A stretch of DNA of 64,000 nt from Candidatus Bathyarchaeia archaeon (GTDB lineage Archaea > Thermoproteota > Bathyarchaeia > 40CM-2-53-6), in the NCBI GenBank assembly GCA_049517415.1, contig JBEKSC010000008.1, positions 1 to 64,000 of the forward strand, written 5' to 3'. Position 1 is the stretch's first letter. Each line of letters opens with the position of its first letter. Made by a program: the position numbers. This document shows, in pieces, positions 15,001 to 24,000 of this stretch.

Positions 15001-18000
15001 ATGGATGTTTTATGGAGCCGCATAGTTCATCAGGATTGACGCAAAGGCCGTGGGTCCGCATAGTACTGCAGTTTGGTGCAGTGTATTGTCTTCTTGACCC
15101 GCGTTTACCTGCAATGTGTTCCACTTGATAACGCGCAATCCTTTCATCGAAATCAGTGAAAGACTTGAACATCTTAAGCAGGTCGTCTTCGTTCGTTCCG
15201 ATGTTCAGTAGGAAGGCAGCCATGGCGAATCTTCCCATGTGAGAGATGTGTTTACTCGTTTGGAGGAGACCGAGCAGATTCCTCATGCATGGTGGCATTG
15301 CGGATGACATTGCTGCTCGAGGCATTTCGTCGGCCGCTAAATATTGTGACCTAGCCTTTAGTGTAGAACGCAACGGTTCGACGCGCTTTTCCAATTCCGC
15401 GGGAAGTGCTACCGTTGTGTCAGCAGTTTTCTCGAGTACTCTAGATTGGACTTCCTCCTCCAGGAGTCTCGCGAAATCTTCACGCGGAAGCAGGACACAG
15501 CCTTCAGCGAGGACCCTATTGACCAATTTCCATCTAAGGTCGTGAATCCGGGCTGAATTACTCACATAGAATGTGAAGTAAAGAGCGAATTCAAAGTGAG
15601 TGTCGCCAACATCTCGATCTGCAAGCTTCGCGTCCCACGCGAACGTGCCAGTTGCTATCTGCAAGAGCTTCTCTGGGCTTTCGTCTCTCAGCAGCTGGTA
15701 GGCTCGCTTTGACTCAGCGAGAGCGTATCGGCGCCGTGTTCTGTCGTCGCCGATGGAGCTGATCAACATCAGCGCCGTGGGGTAAGCGAGGATGTCTACA
15801 TCTTCTTGGGTCAGGTCAGCCGAGATTCTCCCGGTAAAGACGCCTTGCCTGATTCGTTCTATAGCGCGGTCGAGTATGGGAATTAGTTCAGGCCTGACAA
15901 GTTCTAGGGGATCAATGTTTCTTGACTTTATGTAGCTCGAAGCTTCTGCCGTGAACGGGAATTTTGCCAAGTCCAACTTGGTAAGAAGCGCCTGCATGCT
16001 AACCGCCTCTAAATAGTTCGGCAGAGGCGAGGGTGGTTATGCCGTCTTGGCGTTAATAGTTCTACTCCGCCTCAATTCTCGGGGCCAGGAAATAGAGTAA
16101 CTTCCCTTGTTGAGGCATTTCGTACTCTAGTTTCACGGGCATGTTAGATGAGAATTCCAGTGTTACAAGCTCCGCAGCCATCGAGCCGGCCTTGGATATT
16201 TCCGCTAAATAGTTCAGGTTGAACGTGGCCTTGCATGGTTCCTTGACTTCAAGCTCCAGCAAAACGTCGCTGCCCTTCTCTAACTCAATCTTTGCTCCAC
16301 TGAGTTCCGTAACTGCTTCCGCGGTGAACTTCTCTGGGGTAGTCTCGAACCTCACGTTATCGCTGACTGTTTGAATTTGATCAATTATATCTTTGAAGCT
16401 TGAGCTGATCATTTTAATTTTCGTGTTGAAAGAAATTTTCGGCGTCGGCACCTCTTCATCTCCGGGATCGAGCGTGGGGAGAGTGAACGTAGTCTTCCAT
16501 TTTCCTTTGATGACCATGCTGAGCTTTCGAGTATTTTCATCGTATGACATTTCGAGAGGTTCTTGCCCAGCGCCGCGTAGCTTCTTGACAATGTCGGCTA
16601 CATTCAGGCGAATCTTCGTTGGTTGAGGGCAGGTGTATTCTTCAAATGCTGATTTGTTCCATTCAAAGTCAACCATAGCCACATGGGACGGGTCCATCGA
16701 TCTTAGTTTGATGCCTTCAGGGGCGGCGTTGAAGTCGGCTTCCTCAATGAGTGTAGATATCGCCGCGAGAAGGTTCCTCCAAAGCCTCGCATCACCGATA
16801 GTAGCTTTGAACATTCATCAATCACCGGATATCAGGGGGTGTCTTAGAGAGAGAACCTTACGCATTTTAATTGAGCGGTGCGAGTCGCGACGTGGACCCT
16901 AGGAATTTTCACGCCAAGTTGCCCCACAACTTGTGCACCGGAAGAACTGTGTTGAGGATTCATCTGCTCCGCGCGTTTGCACAAGCCAATAGAACGCCTC
17001 TTTGTGTCCACACTTGGGGCAATCAACTTTCGTCTTCGGTAGTGTACGAATTTTCTGTTCTTCTTTACCGATGACGACCACATTCTCTTTTTGTTGCTCC
17101 AACTTTTGCACCGTGCGGTCTGACCGCTTCGTCTCGTAGCCACATTTCGGGCAACTCAAGACGACGGATTTCTGTTTCTTTGTAGGCAGAAGAGCTAAAC
17201 CGCACTTTGGACAAAACTGCACTTTGTTCGCCTTTTTGATTGGCCTTAAGGTCCTTTAGGGGCTCTAGGGGTTGTTAATTTGGGTTACTTATCCGCCCGC
17301 CCTTAGCCTAGGGTTTAGGGTTGCGAAAACTAACCAAACCGTGCTAGCTGCCTGGAGCGGGAGCATCTAAGTATTGGCGGAGTTGGGGAGGTTCAACGTG
17401 TAAACCTTTTCGTAATTGGAGACTGCAGTTGCAAAGAGGCCTTACAATACGCTGCATTATCGTAATCATGCTCTAGGTAGCATGGTCTTCTTCTTCGACT
17501 TTCACGAACACGATTGGCCAGTAAAATGCCTCGTAAAGTATGAATCCTAATTTCCGGCTCTCACGCCTGATCTTTGGTGACGCGGATGGGTACGAATCGC
17601 TACCTCCAGAAAAGCCCACTACTTTTTCCAGCAAATAACTCGACTATTAGAGCCTTTCAGGTCACGGTTCAATTTGCGTTGCCCGCACCAGTAGACTCTC
17701 ACACACGTTTTTCAACGACGAACGATCATGTTCGGAATCGGTGGGTGTTATCGCTCCTTTCTTATCGCATCGTGAAGCGAATCTACTTAGCACGTTTTGG
17801 CATCCAGAATAGGTAGTACATGAGGTAGAATGCCGCGATTCCGCTGAAAGGAGAGAATTTGCTTAGAAGTCGTCGAACTTCATTTGAGCCAATTCGCTTG
17901 CCTTTGAAATACGCTTGTGAGATTGCGCGTTGAATTCCTAGGTCGTCAGCAGGCAATGAATTCACCCTTCCCATGCCCCGAATCAACGTATATTCCGCAG

Positions 18001-21000: not shown

Positions 21001-24000
21001 CAATAACAGTATCCCATTTCAGAACTCGGTGTTTGCATGCTACGCCAGCGTTGAATCGCTCACGAATGAGATCGATGAAGCGCTGCTTCGCTTCAACCTC
21101 GAAACGGTATCGGTAATCGTCCCCTGTGAAGTAGAAGTCGGATAGGTTCAAGGCTTCAGACTGGAATGCCGCGATGACCGAAATGTCAGATAGCCACCTG
21201 AACGGCTCCTGTAAATCATACACTAAAGACTGCTTTGTCTGATAGTCGCTGACATCATGAAAGAAACCGACCGAGGGTTCCAGGCCGACCGCGTTTATTG
21301 CTCGTCGACATTCACCCTCTAGGAAACCATAACCGTAGTTTAGGGCCAAGTTCACGGGATCTGAGGCGTTGTTCTGGTGGCTTGAAGTCATTCGCTCTTG
21401 GAAATCCAAGTGCTCGGGCATCACTTTCCCGAATGCTTCCCAGTATCTCCTAGCTACACGTCCTTCGACAGTTCGTAGGTCTGGCACTGTGGAGGCTCTT
21501 CTGAGCTTTGATGCCTCAAGCTTCGTTACTTGAATCTCCCTAGGAATATCATACCGCTCGGCCAACCAATCAAGAACTTGCAGACTCCTCTCAATTTTCG
21601 CTTGAACGAGCGCTCTGGCTATGCTGAACTTCTTCTTCGGATCGTTCGCAGCTAGAATTTGTGCAGCCCGCAGATCGGCCTTAACAGGCATTGGAGGCAG
21701 AACACTAGAAATCAGACTTCCATCGAAGTTCATGATGAAGACAGGAACCTTATGCTTCGACAGCCAGTGAAACGCTTGGAGAGAAATGTACCCACTGTGC
21801 CCATCGATGATGATGGTGCCGTAAGGGAAACGTCGCGGACGAAAACGGTGCGTAGATTCTGCTCTGTCATCTTCTCGCCAGTTGATGACCTCAAGTTCAG
21901 ATCTTGACTTGAGACTGTTAACGCGGATCTTGGCGCCCCAACCGGATAGATGAAGCGGATTCAAACCTAATGCCCTCCCTGTCTACTTTCATATTCCTTG
22001 AGCTTCTGGTCGGCCAACTTGCCTGCTTCCTTCAATCGTTGTATCTCTCTTTCAGTAGGCCTTGATCTCGTCTTTGTGTTTGCACGGGCCACTATTGATT
22101 GCCAGCGTTCGTTGAGATATCCTACAGCGAAGCTTTCGCCTACAGGACTTGTAAGGAATTCAACGAATTTATCGGGATCGACTGCGAATGCCAACACTAT
22201 TAATCCGTAGTTGCTGAAGCAAGATTTCCAACCTTTTTTCAACTGTTCAGCATCGAGCCAGTTCCTTTTCGCTGAGAACATACTCTCAGCGAGGAAAGCC
22301 GTATACCGGGTTGAGGACCAGTGGGTCAATGCATACTTTAGGTACAGCGACCTTTCGTTAACCATTGTCAATCTAGAGTACGGTCTCATTGCAGTTGACT
22401 CAGGAGTCCTCATGCTATCACATGGCGATCCAATATCTTCGATGCTGAATAGCGCGTTCTTGCATCGAGTAATGAACTATCTCGCTGACTGGTCACCGTT
22501 CAAAACAAACAGTTATCCAAACGATGGTCTGAAACTGTACTCCGAGACAGGGAAAATGCTTAACGCCATTTTTGTGAGAGTTGCGGATGGCAAGACCTGG
22601 CACATTGCCTTTCATCTCAAGCCGGAAACGTCAACCGACGCGATCAAACCTGACATGGTCAAGCTACTCTCAATGCTAGCATCTTTAGGTTTGGTGAAGA
22701 ACCCTGTTGTGAGAGAACGAGTGGGTAAGAAACCTTGGATATGATATTAGTGATAGACAGACTGAACAAGTGTGAGAGACCGTTCTCCGAACGAGAATGA
22801 ACCATCTCCAATTTTCTCCTCGACACACAAAGCGACGCTGCCAGAATTAGATTCGGTCGTCCGTCTAGTGTGTGTGCGCACCATTAGACCCACACCCTTT
22901 CTAACGACGCTGGTCCAAATTACGACTCTCGCAAGCACTAGGTCCACAATGAAGGAAAACGCGATAGTTGGACAGTTGAAATCACAGATAACGCAAATGG
23001 CGACTGCCAACTCTACAGGAGGCTGATTGGAATAATTTGATTGGATTGACGAAGAGTCTTACTTCTTCGCCGATTGCTTAGCGTAGGCCGCCAAACCACC
23101 ATCCGACACGCCATAATACTTAACCATTTGACTAAGCTTTTGCCATAAAGCTTTGCCAATTCAAAGCGGTGCAGAATTTCTTGGAAAATCTAACCTTTCA
23201 CACCTCAAAGATTGATAATTTCTCAGGCTTTTCAAAACCATTAGACGAGGCGCGCTACGTGGTGGTAGGTGTCCCATACGATCACACAAGTACATATCGA
23301 GCGGGGTCACGTTTCGCCCCACGAACAATTCGCGATGCATCATTGAACATTGAGACCTATAGCCTCCGAACGGCAATCGACATCGAAAACGTTCCAATAC
23401 ACGATGCAGGAGACCTGCATATAGTCGATAATGCTTCTGAAACACTCGACAGGCTAAAAGGGGTTACAAAGGACATTCTAGCCCTTGGGAAGATGCCAGT
23501 CATCATCGGCGGAGAGCACACAATCACTCAAGCTCCAGTCCGTAGCCTTCCGCACCCTGTCGGGGTTGTTAGTTTTGATGCCCACGGCGACCTGAGGGAT
23601 GAATATGGTGGCGGAAAATTATCCCACGCCACAGTCTTGAGGCGCATTACCGAGATTGTTGGGACGGATAGCGTTTTCGTATGCGGTCTGCGAGCCCTAT
23701 GCAAAGAAGAGGTAGATTTTATTGAACTAGGGAAAGTCCAGACGATGACGCCATGGGAAATTAGGGAGAAAGGCTTAGCCAAGGCGACGGAACGCATCAA
23801 AGCCTTTGCTCAAAAGTTCAAACACACATACCTTACCATAGATACTGATGTCTTAGACCCAGCCTTTGCACCCGGGGTCGCAAACCCTGAATTCGATGGC
23901 TTAACGCCTCAGGAACTCCTGACACTAGCCACCGCTGTGGTTGACGAAAAAATGGTCGGCTTCGACCTCGTGGAGGTATGTCCAAACTATGATACCGGCG

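Follow-up and report, generated by a model that had tools for sequence, protein, structure and literature searches.

A tRNA-end-like intergenic repeat of a Bathyarchaeia archaeon as a probable joint of casposase-related elements

Introduction

In the genome of a Candidatus Bathyarchaeia archaeon (2,646,868 nt, 59 contigs), a repeat of about 65 bases recurs between genes, and its copies gather in variable islands. The window analyzed here, 64,000 nt of contig C8, holds several copies on either side of a gene for a "solo" Cas1. What is the repeat, and is this Cas1 its partner? The genome-wide survey's note had taken it for the DNA partner of solo casposases, a tRNA-end-mimicking integration site serving an integron-like capture of genes run by Cas1. 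We find that the repeat is a composite junction and not one unit or one mobile site. It is probably, at roughly 70%, the recurrent joint of family-2-type casposases (Cas1-solo) and the elements moved by them. Casposon joints at tRNA-tail landing sites would explain the shuffled, mostly single-gene accessory blocks of this archaeon.

Results

An nhmmer search seeded with C8:18801-18890 and iterated to convergence (E<=1e-3) returned 64 matches over the whole genome, close to the 62 first reported, and the same model had no matches on the reversed genome. By our own crude gene calls (60 aa or more), 62 of these lie outside called genes, bearing out the almost wholly intergenic position claimed. 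The clusters already listed (C12:650-8800, C37, C39, C50, C53, C3:128-152 kb) were all recovered, and others were added at C2:146-1003 and 163-167 kb, C4:127-141 kb, C47, C41 and C8:84-86.5 kb; contig ends host many of them. Four of the 64 copies fall in the window (17664-17725, 18813-18877, 22869-22913 and, in another variable stretch, 63351-63407). Two more, 20061-20112 (E 4.4e-5 / 2.3e-3) and 20595-20621 (E 1.4e-3), are significant only in an island-restricted search.

The repeat sequence is strongly conserved across genera and, as the note had stated, matches no Rfam family. No RNA fold was found in type-A copies, which are less structured than shuffles (z +1.6 and +2.4). Among 40 type-A copies, the upstream gene lies on the opposite strand 22 times and on the same strand 18 times, and the downstream gene on the same strand 21 times and on the opposite strand 15 times. 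Gene orientation is thus random and genes and repeat share no polarity; both repeat orientations also occur inside one island.

The repeat is pieced together from target, duplicated segment and transposon ends. A tRNA-3′-end-like leader, TCAAAT(T) followed by 8 nt, is present in 40 of the 64 matches, and the spacing from TCAAAT to CGCA is exactly 8 nt in 38 of the 40 leader-bearing copies. A 14-nt segment that starts with CGCA (CGCACCA-like core) is present in 64/64. The element end is an inverted-repeat end with a (CA)n tip, a short T-run 3′ of the CA run and a subterminal ACGACGAACGACGACGG motif. The tRNA mimicry noticed earlier is precise: G53-A76 of a copy has the exact 24-nt geometry of a tRNA 3′ end, and the tRNA genes of this genome encode CCA. 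The leader copies the stretch of a tRNA gene from T-loop to acceptor but has no T-stem partner, and the 14-nt target segment covers the equivalent of tRNA positions 70-73, followed by CCA and a further 7 nt. In an alignment of 26 type-A copies, the columns that are invariant or at least 90% conserved are G4-A9 (12-17 nt upstream of the 14-mer), G18-C19 (immediately 5′ of CGCA), G22-A24 and the CA run, and the T-stem-like columns 13-16 are variable.

Type B copies read GTGTGTG, 14-mer, CACACAC, and are the right end of one element, a common 14-mer and the left end of the next. The same joint would be expected on a circular excision product. Two further end types, GGGGTATTAAC... and CCGCCCCCGCC..., abut leader and 14-mer at the identical base, the former a G-run resembling published casposon ends. 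Two features of the joint speak against a casposon origin. Half of the leaders (16/32) stand alone with no upstream element end, and the CA-type end terminates in 3′-G, where the casposon ends described in the cited studies need 3′-CCC(C).

Table 1. Repeat parts and genes in the window (positions count from its first base).
Feature	Position	Strand	Remarks
Leader 1, tRNA-3′-end-like (ACGGTTCAATTTGCGTTGCC)	17664..17683	+	TCAAT/TCAAAT 8 nt before the 14-mer
14-nt target segment 1 (CGCACCAGTAGACT)	17684..17697	+	
Element end 1: (CA)n-type tip, T-run, ACGACGAACGA motif	17698..17735	+	Faces right, to the HhH-GPD gene
Cargo gene, HhH-GPD DNA glycosylase, 314 aa	17783..18727	-	Junction-flanked here and in other genomes
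Leader 2	18813..18832	+	Degenerate (CA)n tip of another end directly upstream, 18782-18812
14-nt target segment 2 (CGCACCAGCTGACC)	18833..18846	+	
Element end 2 (CACACACACTTTCTATGACGAACGACGACGG)	18847..18877	+	About 26/30 positions match the inverted end C2:167393, one gap
14-nt target segment 3 (CGCACCACTAGACC)	20065..20078	-	Read on the minus strand
Element end 3: tip, T-run, ACGACAAACGACGACGG motif, degenerate TCGAAT	20079..20125	+	Faces right
Duplicated node	20162..20480	.	20373-20480 100% identical to the reverse of the C2 end
Second repeat family, "extended leader" (...GGGGATTCTGACCCCAATTTAGCGGTAC...)	20516..20568	+	Precedes leaders at several sites
Degenerate leader and 14-mer (GTTCAAATTCCGATGCT + CGTACCAGAAGGCG)	20595..20625	+	Faces cas1
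Cas1 "solo" gene, 404 aa	20750..21964	-	PF01867, E 1.2e-51
Element end 4, right end (...GATTCGGTCGTCCGTCTAGTGTGTGTG)	22846..22876	+	
14-nt target segment 4 (CGCACCATTAGACC)	22877..22890	+	
Degenerate left end and decayed leader (CACACCCTTTCTAACGACGCTGGTCCAAATT...)	22891..22935	+	
Further family copy	63351..63407	-	GT run (right-end-like), CGTACCAGTATCAC, CA run, motif, TTCAAT

The HhH-GPD cargo gene (Table 1) is bracketed by junction matches in L062 and L064, has them on a single side in L063 and L066, and has none in L065. In a hypothetical join of C8 to the reverse of C2, segment 2 finds an identical 14-mer after the matching inverted end at C2:167392. Read depth over 20270-20480 is about double in the single run where that piece is its own contig, and a misjoin of C8 at 20162-20480 is possible. 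The inverted pair 20061-20087 / 22868-22894, said to bracket cas1, does exist, but it does not delimit a clean element: its two 14-mers are mutually inverted, which counts against a casposon here, and the possible misjoin lies between them. The leader and 14-mer facing cas1 lie 141 nt past the gene's 3′ end (tblastn match).

The window's Cas1 aligns with the Methanosarcina mazei casposase (6OPM) at E 4.3e-69, residues 36-403 against 50-414, and the alignment extends into the C-terminus. It is a full-length homologue of the M. mazei enzyme and, judged by this homology, appears to be a family-2-type casposase. A tree of Cas1 proteins has three clades (support 100/100, 100/98 and 81/84), and Cas1 clade and end type co-vary. 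CCGCC-type ends face 3/3 members of one clade, the window's clade has CA-type ends wherever an end was seen (4/6), and the third has GGGG-type ends at 1/2 tree members and at the truncated L097. A cas1-facing leader with its 14-mer lies past the 3′ end of 15 of 23 Cas1 genes or fragments and past the 5′ end of 5 of the 23.

The earlier figures on proximity were largely reproduced: 7 of 64 matches lie within 10 kb of Cas1 genes (8 of 62 had been claimed), and in 18 Cas1 loci from named Bathyarchaeia MAGs (288,578 nt, E<=1e-2) the model again finds 16 of 18 loci positive at one match per 4.4 kb, 65 matches in all. The genome-wide density here is about one per 41 kb, from a search that differs in threshold and database size.

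Several observations run against the casposon reading. A Cas1 match is absent from 7 of the 14 genus genomes with at least 25 copies. One of these is G011, with 74 copies and 99% completeness, and BLAST shows no more than cas1 fragments in such genomes. There is a weak correlation between copy number and Cas1 count (rho 0.24, p 0.27). In G017, the 11 Cas1 copies have the gene alone in common and no common transposon, and the three full-length clade-I cas1 genes there have facing leader junctions with no matching inverted-end partner 14-mer in their 20-kb loci. The ORFs scanned in and around Cas1 elements yielded no PolB domain, so the defining "self-synthesizing" trait of casposons is missing from these elements.

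Elements with inverted ends and identical flanking 14-mers do occur. We collected pairs of identical 14-mers in direct orientation, spaced 300-20,000 nt, from this genome, from a test join of C8 with the reverse of C2, and from the fetched loci of relatives. Inverted tips matching at 8/10 positions or more accompany 8 of 42 pairs starting with CGCA versus 32 of 9158 other pairs. The eight overlap and amount to about six separate elements of 0.6-8.6 kb; in a ninth pair (G014 L079, 4.35 kb) the inverted ends are shifted by one base. The cleanest, G014 L078:8969-11398, is 2.4 kb long with a TIR of about 70 nt at about 85% identity and carries one KaiC/TPR gene (697 aa); a third identical 14-mer at 13164 makes this a tandem array. 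The 8.6-kb element G000 C3:151783-143154 contains a 410-aa Cas1. Adjacent left-end/right-end pairs in the same orientation have identical 14-mers in only 2/18 cases (random-pair p about 0.13) and unequal ones in 16/18, contrary to the casposon reading. On C39, two copies of a 113-nt composite joint flank a 4.1-kb block.

Cassettes turn over between genomes. In the closest relative, island genes of G000 find their matches (93-96%) singly and at scattered places, homology to close relatives ends at the CA/TG edge of joints, and synteny breaks coincide with repeat copies. The copies had been said to be better conserved than their flanks, and indeed repeat matches between genomes are 81-95% identical, against 70-83% for the neighboring PCNA-TFS block in 21 of the 22 other genus genomes. 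At the outer border of the island (C8:17226 and its C2 partner), the closest relative has a 48-nt gap with no landing site, a point against casposon insertion.

Discussion

The target geometry links the repeat to Cas1. The casposase of Aciduliprofundum boonei is reported to require TCAAATC 8 bp upstream of a 14-15-bp target site duplication (TSD) and the first two TSD bases (PMC6614799). That of M. mazei makes 14-bp TSDs whose critical 5′-CGCA overlaps the last 4 bp of tRNA-Leu, and it requires bp 12-17 upstream, the 4 bp 5′ of CGCA and the last five TSD bp (PMC6977970). The conserved blocks of our repeat stand at the TCAAAT-8-bp and 14-bp CGCA positions that these experiments showed to be required, which supports a DNA-level partnership with Cas1 and an integration site. 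The full-length homology of the window's Cas1 and the shuffling of single-gene segments between close relatives, with homology breaking at the joints, support the same reading. The survey's proposal of a casposase partner that mimics a tRNA end is thus upheld. Its further step, that Cas1 runs gene capture, goes beyond this link: we infer that Cas1 catalyzes the insertions and drives capture, and half of the high-copy genomes lack it.

In the model we favor, casposons and small gene-carrying derivatives would insert at a landing site that copies a tRNA gene tail, duplicating the 14-nt CGCA segment. Most elements would be non-autonomous (0.6-8.6 kb, lacking PolB and usually cas1, with one or a few accessory genes), presumably mobilized in trans. 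They would pile up in tandem or nested arrays, which would leave a joint in nearly all intergenic gaps of an island. The leader often directly follows a left end, so each insertion could create a landing site anew. The many similar joints would later recombine with one another, scrambling the duplicated 14-mers and reshuffling the cassettes.

The copies could instead be MITE- or REP-like small elements whose transposase is unrecognized or lost, with Cas1 an island passenger gene and the likeness to casposase targets a result of shared descent from tRNA-gene ends. Such elements would accommodate the patchy occurrence of Cas1 and its weak correlation with copy number, the single-gene cassettes of G017, the mostly unequal 14-mers, and a CA-type tip without the terminal C-run that casposases require in the studies cited. 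We nevertheless consider this unlikely, because Cas1 clade co-varies with end type and the exact 8-nt spacing, 14-nt segment and CGCA start agree point by point with the casposase biochemistry reported. No candidate enzyme was found either, a Y1 transposase occurring in 1 of the 22 other genus genomes and this genome containing one IS110 and one TnpB fragment. Ordinary homologous recombination between copies, whatever spread them, could also excise, insert or invert the genes between them. The breaks of homology at joints, the unequal 14-mers flanking cassettes and the duplicated C39 joint fit it. As a full account it is improbable, since it explains neither where the repeats came from nor why there are sharp 14-nt duplications, inverted ends and a casposase-like target geometry, and it is best seen as a secondary process on top of casposase-driven insertion.

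We think it quite improbable that the repeats are att scars, displaced tRNA tails plus element arms left by tyrosine-integrase elements serially entering tRNA-gene 3′ ends. Tyrosine recombination leaves direct att repeats without inverted ends, and the inverted ends here flank a sharp-edged 14-nt duplication. Copies run both ways within an island, and no tyrosine integrase was found inside repeat islands (0/6 of the genome's Phage_integrase matches). Such scars would nonetheless suit the genuine tRNA mimicry, islands that begin beside real tRNA genes (tRNA-Ser at C3:128103-128241; in G014, the homologue of the C1:94774 tRNA gene) and the weak integrase-like ORF that adjoins a partial Cas1 on C9. 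A promoter, terminator, UTR or tRNA-like small RNA common to an accessory-gene regulon would fit the intergenic position, the T-run after the CA run and the conservation across genera. The random orientation, the lack of structure or an Rfam match, and copies falling on synteny breaks make this the most doubtful explanation of all.

The casposase-joint reading places these elements near family 2 casposons (MetMaz-C1 and relatives of M. mazei; AciBoo-C1 of A. boonei). The elements here share with these a Cas1 casposase with a C-terminal extension, a target of the tRNA-3′-end kind, a duplicated 14-bp segment that starts with CGCA and has TCAAAT 8 bp upstream, inverted ends, solo ends, and tandem elements with one common TSD (the last two described for casposons in PMC4779613). 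They differ in several ways. Neither PolB nor any other replication gene occurs in those scanned; a genome has dozens to about a hundred joints instead of one to three elements; cargo is mostly one to a few host-type accessory genes; the target is a free-standing tRNA-tail mimic found island-wide instead of a genuine tRNA gene; the predominant end is a CA run that terminates in 3′-G and not the reported C-run; and the duplicated 14-mers are mostly unequal.

In M. mazei, engineered mini-casposons carrying only cargo are reported to be mobile in vivo with TIRs and target segments alone, the arrangement seen here (PMC10359463). In the circular-intermediate model of that work, one target copy stays behind after excision, and reinsertion can bring along the target segment that the element carries, including in reverse complement, which would explain the unequal or inverted 14-mers here. 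Those were laboratory constructs, whereas the present elements are natural, cargo-carrying and numerous. Our literature search found no description of natural high-copy cargo-carrying casposon derivatives.

The integron/attC analogy was not supported. The repeat joins inverted transposon ends to a 14-nt duplication, type-A sites lack a hairpin, genes and sites run in both orientations, and the islands contain no IntI-type integrase. The attC consensus has an R″/R′ core pattern, which is missing from the sites here. What the islands do have in common with integrons, including the archaeal ones described by Ghaly et al., is an array of mostly single-gene accessory cassettes with a conserved site between them and a content that varies between close relatives. 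They also resemble Tn7-type stacking islands, for which PMC4779613 draws the comparison: a reused kind of landing site piles elements, many inactive, into an island. Tn7-type stacking takes place at one attachment site; here the landing site has itself multiplied and moves along with the elements, giving rise to islands at many loci.

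Proposed nature of the repeat

The 65-nt repeat family probably comprises the target, duplication and end sequences both of family-2-type casposases and of numerous small cargo elements, PolB-less and mostly lacking cas1, that stack into cassette islands; we put the probability of this reading at about 0.7. Casposons are rare, large, self-replicating transposons, present in one to three copies per genome, and have drawn interest mainly because CRISPR spacer integration is presumed to descend from them. If the reading is right, a widespread soil and peat archaeal lineage employs the casposase family on a far larger scale, with tens to about a hundred landing-site/end joints per genome, small cargo-only elements and swappable accessory-gene cassettes. 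The reading would then supply a concrete mechanism for rapid accessory-genome turnover in Bathyarchaeia and a natural case of cargo-only elements like mini-casposons. It would also offer a directly testable system, in which the 14-mer and the leader described below are defined and the three end families go with three Cas1 clades, for asking how the target and end specificities of Cas1 co-evolve, the step from which CRISPR arrays arose.

The repeat family and its anatomy

Iterated nhmmer from the seed C8:18801-18890 converged on 64 matches at E<=1e-3 in the 2.65-Mb, 59-contig source genome, and the same model gave zero matches in the reversed genome. The family described in the genome-wide survey's note is borne out, with a count of 64 here and not 62. 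The cluster places it named were reproduced, with many copies at contig ends and on small contigs, as was the intergenic position: 62 of the 64 lie outside called genes of at least 60 aa (our own rough gene calls). A 46-position sequence model found 2-98 copies in each of the 22 other genomes of the genus (22/22), 7-91 per genome in a second genus of the family and 10-19 in a few genomes from other families of the order; overall, 26 of 61 genomes have at least 10 matches.

The 65 nt are a composite, not a single unit. A CGCACCA-like core, which with the next 7 nt forms a 14-nt segment (the 14-mer), is present in 64 of 64 matches. The 14-mer is usually followed on its right by a CA run, and often then by a short T-run and the motif ACGACGAACGACGACGG. 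On its left, type A copies have a tRNA-like stretch, (AC)GGTTCAAATT-N4-TGCC (the leader), while type B copies have a GT run, often preceded by the reverse-complement ACGACG motif, so that type B is a long palindrome with an asymmetric 14-nt centre. Palindromes are restricted to these end-to-end type-B joints. In folding tests type A had no stable fold (z +1.57 and +2.38), and a type-B composite scored z -3.3.

The tRNA mimicry claimed for the repeat holds: 24 nt run from G53 to A76 in exact tRNA geometry, and CCA is encoded in the tRNA genes of this genome. By the same geometry, CGCA would correspond to tRNA nt 70-73. The TCAAAT(T/C) leader occurs in 40 matches, with a spacing to the 14-mer of exactly 8 nt in 38 of them. 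In an alignment of 26 type-A copies (A2), columns G4-A9, 12-17 nt upstream of the 14-mer, are invariant or at least 90% conserved; G18 and C19 just 5' of CGCA and G22-A24 within CGCA are also invariant or nearly so, and the T-stem-like columns are free to vary. Type A would then consist of leader, target segment and an element's left end, and type B of a right end, a shared target segment and the next element's left end. Half of the leaders (16/32) have no element end upstream. A separate model of the T-run/ACGACG part gave 33 matches at E<=1, nearly all in full joints and few as isolated ends; a "left end ... right end" grammar built on it was dropped, as it added nothing beyond the full joints.

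Two variations on this anatomy were seen. At positions 225-290 of contig C53 (locus L005) the junction tips GTCGTCG / CGACGAC replace the GT/CA runs; symmetry is kept while the sequence has changed, which suggests a further end variant. A second dispersed repeat, ...GGGGATTCTGACCCCAATTTA(C/G)CGGTAC..., has many matches in relatives at 87-95% identity and stands directly upstream of the tRNA-like leader at several sites, as an extended leader. It was ruled out as the anticodon arm of tRNA-Arg(TCT), which it does not match.

Fit to casposase biochemistry and the proposed Cas1 link

The window's Cas1 (404 aa, 20750..21964, minus strand) is a full-length casposase homologue, C-terminal extension included (PF01867, E 1.2e-51). 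Against the M. mazei casposase (PDB 6OPM) it matches at E 4.3e-69, residues 36-403 aligning to 50-414 of 431. Target duplications made by M. mazei casposons are 14 bp long; their first four bases, CGCA, are critical and coincide with the final 4 bp of tRNA-Leu. Integration depends as well on bp 12-17 upstream, on the 4 bp immediately 5' of CGCA and on the duplication's last 5 bp (PMC6977970). For the A. boonei enzyme the target must have TCAAATC, placed 8 bp before the duplicated segment, and the segment's first two bases, and on the element the 3'-terminal TCCCC alone is required (PMC6614799).

Set beside these accounts, our joints have a 14-nt centre starting with CGCA, like the M. mazei duplication at a tRNA end in family 2. 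They also have TCAAAT(T/C) 8 nt upstream and conserved columns 12-17 nt upstream, like the A. boonei and M. mazei targets, and the elements have terminal inverted repeats, as casposons do. Unlike casposons, for which PolB is the self-synthesizing trait, the scanned elements have no PolB domain; none turned up among the scanned ORFs of the window island, the 8.6-kb element on C3 and locus L095 of the relative G017. The CA-type end (3'-...GTG) also differs from the 3' C-run described for A. boonei (TCCCC) and M. mazei LE31 (...TCCC), a form shared only by the GGGGTATTAAC end family of G017.

The same leader and 14-mer are joined, at the same base, by two further end families (see table). The G-run of GGGGTATTAAC resembles published casposon ends; in neither L095 nor L097 was its right end located. 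At 6-7 kb inward of the GGGGTATTAAC ends, these two loci hold a divergent Cas1 (about 42% identity) and a HEAT-repeat protein. On C9 the third-family end has a weak integrase-like ORF next to it and a partial Cas1 at a distance of 2.8 kb.

Three Cas1 clades appear in a tree of 11 full-length proteins. All members of one clade (3/3) face CCGCC-type ends. In the window's clade 4 of 6 face CA-type ends and the other two face none. Of the third clade's two members, one has a GGGG-type end facing it, and so has the truncated L097 Cas1, which the tree does not include. The match of clade to end type rests on 11 proteins. Of 23 Cas1 genes or fragments, 15 have a leader and 14-mer facing cas1 beyond the 3' end and 5 have them beyond the 5' end; with many of these loci drawn from a single genome, they are not independent. 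The density near Cas1 given in the genome-wide survey's note was recovered, with 65 matches in 16 of 18 Cas1 loci, one per 4.4 kb. The relatives with a Cas1 homologue are Candidatus Bathyarchaeia/Bathyarchaeota MAGs.

Several observations run against the casposon reading or are left unexplained by it. No Cas1 was found in 7 of the 14 genomes of the genus with at least 25 copies, and one Cas1-less genome is 99% complete in 10 contigs and has 74 copies. Copy number correlates weakly with Cas1 count (rho 0.24, p 0.27), and the 11 Cas1 copies of G017 have nothing in common but the gene itself. BLAST does find cas1 fragments in some of the Cas1-less high-copy genomes. With the site geometry matching casposase biochemistry, the Cas1-less high-copy genomes no longer count as a strong argument against a link to Cas1, and are kept as contrary evidence. 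On the same side stand the missing PolB, the 3' G of the CA-type end, the leaders that stand by themselves, the G017 leader junctions with no partner 14-mer and the island border that has no landing site in G014.

Candidate elements bounded by duplicated 14-mers

Casposon insertion duplicates a target segment of 14-15 bp. We therefore scanned the genome, the relatives' loci and a trial sequence joining C8 to reversed C2 for direct identical 14-mer pairs 300-20,000 nt apart. Inverted tips matching at 8 or more of 10 positions were found in 8 of 42 pairs starting with CGCA, compared to 32 of 9158 other pairs; the eight overlap and represent about six separate elements. In a nearest-neighbour test, adjacent left-end to right-end pairs had identical 14-mers in 2 of 18 cases and unequal ones in 16 (p about 0.13, not significant), a weaker result than that of the wider scan.

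The cleanest element, in locus L078 of the closest relative (G014), has sharp 14-mer edges with flanks that differ on both sides, and it carries one gene, for a 697-aa KaiC/TPR protein. Because the identical 14-mer occurs a third time, at L078 13164, this is a tandem array. In the C3 Cas1 element, inverted similarity is limited to the tips and a subterminal motif. Tandem casposons have one duplicated segment in common and solo ends occur (PMC4779613), and cargo-only mini-casposons are mobile in vivo, leaving one target copy after excision; for these a circular intermediate has been proposed, and one reinsertion brought along the target segment of the element itself, reverse-complemented (PMC10359463).

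Comparison of the source genome with G014 gave no clean pair of empty and occupied sites; whole islands differ. The three full-length window-type cas1 genes of G017 have facing leader junctions with no matching inverted-end partner 14-mer in the 20-kb loci. Apparent joints in public contigs, with sides of 22-28 nt, were ruled out as excision products; they are cross-matches between repeat copies.

Repeat copies, ends and candidate elements (window or contig positions; G000 is the source genome)
Feature	Location	Size	Description
Window copies among the 64	start at 17664, 18813, 22869, 63351
Copies found only by island-restricted search	20061, 20595		copy at 20595 decayed
Left part of window island	17664-20125		two right-pointing leader junctions and one right-pointing end from a reversed 14-mer
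Mutually inverted 14-mers	20065-20078 / 22877-22890
Joint right of cas1	22846-22935		right end, 14-mer, left end
Second dispersed repeat	window 20516-20568; G000 C4:132391-132437, about C4:140915-140960; G014 L078 about 8925-8950
G-run end, GGGGTATTAAC...	G017 L095:4352-4560, L097:2866-3070		starts exactly after leader and 14-mer; internal GTCCACGTGTAC repeats
Third end family, CCGCCCCCGCC.../CCGCCCCCGCCGCC..., then the same ACGACGAACGACG motif	G000 C9:21017, C39:5171; L099:19351; L101:13594; L112:15655; L113:4925; L122:17879		abuts the same 14-mer; in G000, G017 and other loci
Cleanest element	G014 L078:8969-11398	2.4 kb	inverted ends of about 70 nt, roughly 85% identity
C3 Cas1 element	G000 C3, 151783 to 143154	8.6 kb	410-aa Cas1, no PolB
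Neighbour of C3 element		8.0 kb	same 14-mer
C39 block	G000 C39	4.2 kb	flanked by a 113-nt duplicated composite, not the 14-mer alone
Further element	G014	0.6 kb
L079 element	G014 L079	4.35 kb	ends offset by one base, hence below the tip threshold
C8/C2 pair	C8:18833 / C2:167392	8.3 kb	ends agree at about 26/30 positions with one gap (C8:18847 vs C2:167393); holds if the contigs are joined

Alternative explanations

The genome-wide survey's note had likened the repeat to integron attC sites, and this analogy failed on integrase location, fold and orientation. No IntI lies near the arrays, all 6 Phage_integrase matches in the genome being outside the repeat islands; type A lacks the stable fold of an attC hairpin; and in place of the single orientation of integron cassettes, the four gene/site classes number 12, 9, 9 and 6 of 40. 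For the type-A copies, 40 in all, the gene upstream runs opposite to the copy in 22 cases and the same way in 18; for the gene downstream the figures are 15 opposite and 21 the same way. This random orientation argues against integron-like polarity and equally against a promoter, terminator or UTR, all of which we rejected. A structured or tRNA-like RNA was also rejected: beyond the absence of a fold in type A, the copies have no complementary partner for the T-stem or acceptor strand, an Rfam search returned nothing and ARAGORN called no copy as a tRNA.

Other movers were considered as well. Single-strand transposition of the IS200/IS605 type, with target ACGG, tandem insertion and PATE/REP derivatives, was rejected for want of a Y1 transposase and of hairpins; PF01797 is present in 1 of the 22 other genomes of the genus and absent (0) from the source genome. 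IS110 and TnpB were set aside as movers, with a single fragment of each in the genome. IS110-family elements are known to target repeats. The sole IS110-type fragment (Transposase_20; C8:85308-85706, outside the window) sits within a dense junction cluster at the contig end.

The window locus and a possible misjoin

The right part of the window locus contains cas1, with a decayed leader and 14-mer 141 nt past the 3' end of the cas1 match. An inverted pair of repeats had been said to bracket this gene; its 14-mers are indeed mutually inverted, and for that reason the pair frames no clean element. A look-up of expression data listed no RNA source for window positions 17300-20200.

Contig C8 may be misjoined here, switching between two islands at the 20162-20480 node. 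Positions 20373-20480 are 100% identical to the reverse of the end of C2 (C2:174039-174146), and the graph of public contigs has branch points at 20162-20191, 20270-20299 and 20451-20480. Run X15 is the one in which 20270-20480 forms a contig by itself, at about twice the depth. Across four runs the PCNA side is consistently slightly deeper (66/63/27/23) than the cas1-arginase side (55/59/23/17). A 211-319-nt stretch at 20162-20480, the 3' part of a small membrane-protein gene and the DNA downstream, seems to be present twice in the genome. Continuation of C8:1-20480 into the reverse of C2 is favoured by the synteny with G014 and by the matching 14-mer.

Islands, cargo and wider meaning

G014 is the closest relative, with core genes 93-95% identical. 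There 48 nt, with no repeat among them, separate the PCNA-TFS block (C8:12205-17225) from the homologue of C2:157077-160998, and the relative's empty locus at the island's outer border is without a landing site; the arginase block (C8:23114 onwards) is on a different G014 contig. Island genes match G014 singly at scattered places (93-96% identity), and in the four informative cases homology runs out either within the 14-mer or at the CA/GT run's edge. By Pfam, 149 island ORFs are an assortment of accessory genes in both orientations, including GNAT, CMD, EamA, pirin, dodecin, racemase, SAM methyltransferases, TBP/TFB paralogues, AsnC, luciferase-like oxygenases, BON, SIMPL, SOUL and hemerythrin. 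The window's HhH-GPD gene recurs in five other loci with repeats on both sides (L062, L064), on one side (L063, L066) or on neither (L065), and its orientation relative to the repeats varies.

A bolder proposal, tentative and on balance doubtful, is that a natural, PolB-less casposase system serves as an engine for gene cassettes. In it, Cas1 would mobilise accessory genes one at a time, each between short inverted ends, and every insertion would duplicate the 14-nt CGCA segment and regenerate the adjacent tRNA-tail-like leader. Arrays of leader, 14-mer, insert and 14-mer would then grow and reshuffle much like CRISPR arrays. Were this true, the system would bridge casposons and CRISPR adaptation as a living intermediate, and would amount to an integron counterpart run by Cas1. 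A literature search, which for the casposon papers' supplements extended to one table, turned up no account of casposons or casposon derivatives from Bathyarchaeia and none of cargo-only derivatives occurring in nature.

The repeat does not underlie every variable island: at one core locus the source genome (C22:23740-30955) and G014 (L076:1963-6981) carry different islands, and the C22 island has no repeat copy. The basal transcription factors TBP (two extra copies) and TFB (one) occur as cassette cargo at C12:14-583, C50:3779-4456 and C4:134955-135896. Two islands start beside real tRNA genes, one about 90 nt after tRNA-Ser (C3:128103-128241) and one in G014 (L077:3590-3760) right after the homologue of the tRNA gene at C1:94774-94896; in neither case is the tRNA gene's own tail the leader. 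Two stretches of C53 (1-103 and 878-1041), one encoding a basic protein of ~37 aa, show 92-100% identity among five genomes of the genus; side by side and inverted in relatives, in the source genome they are separated by a junction copy and an AsnC gene.
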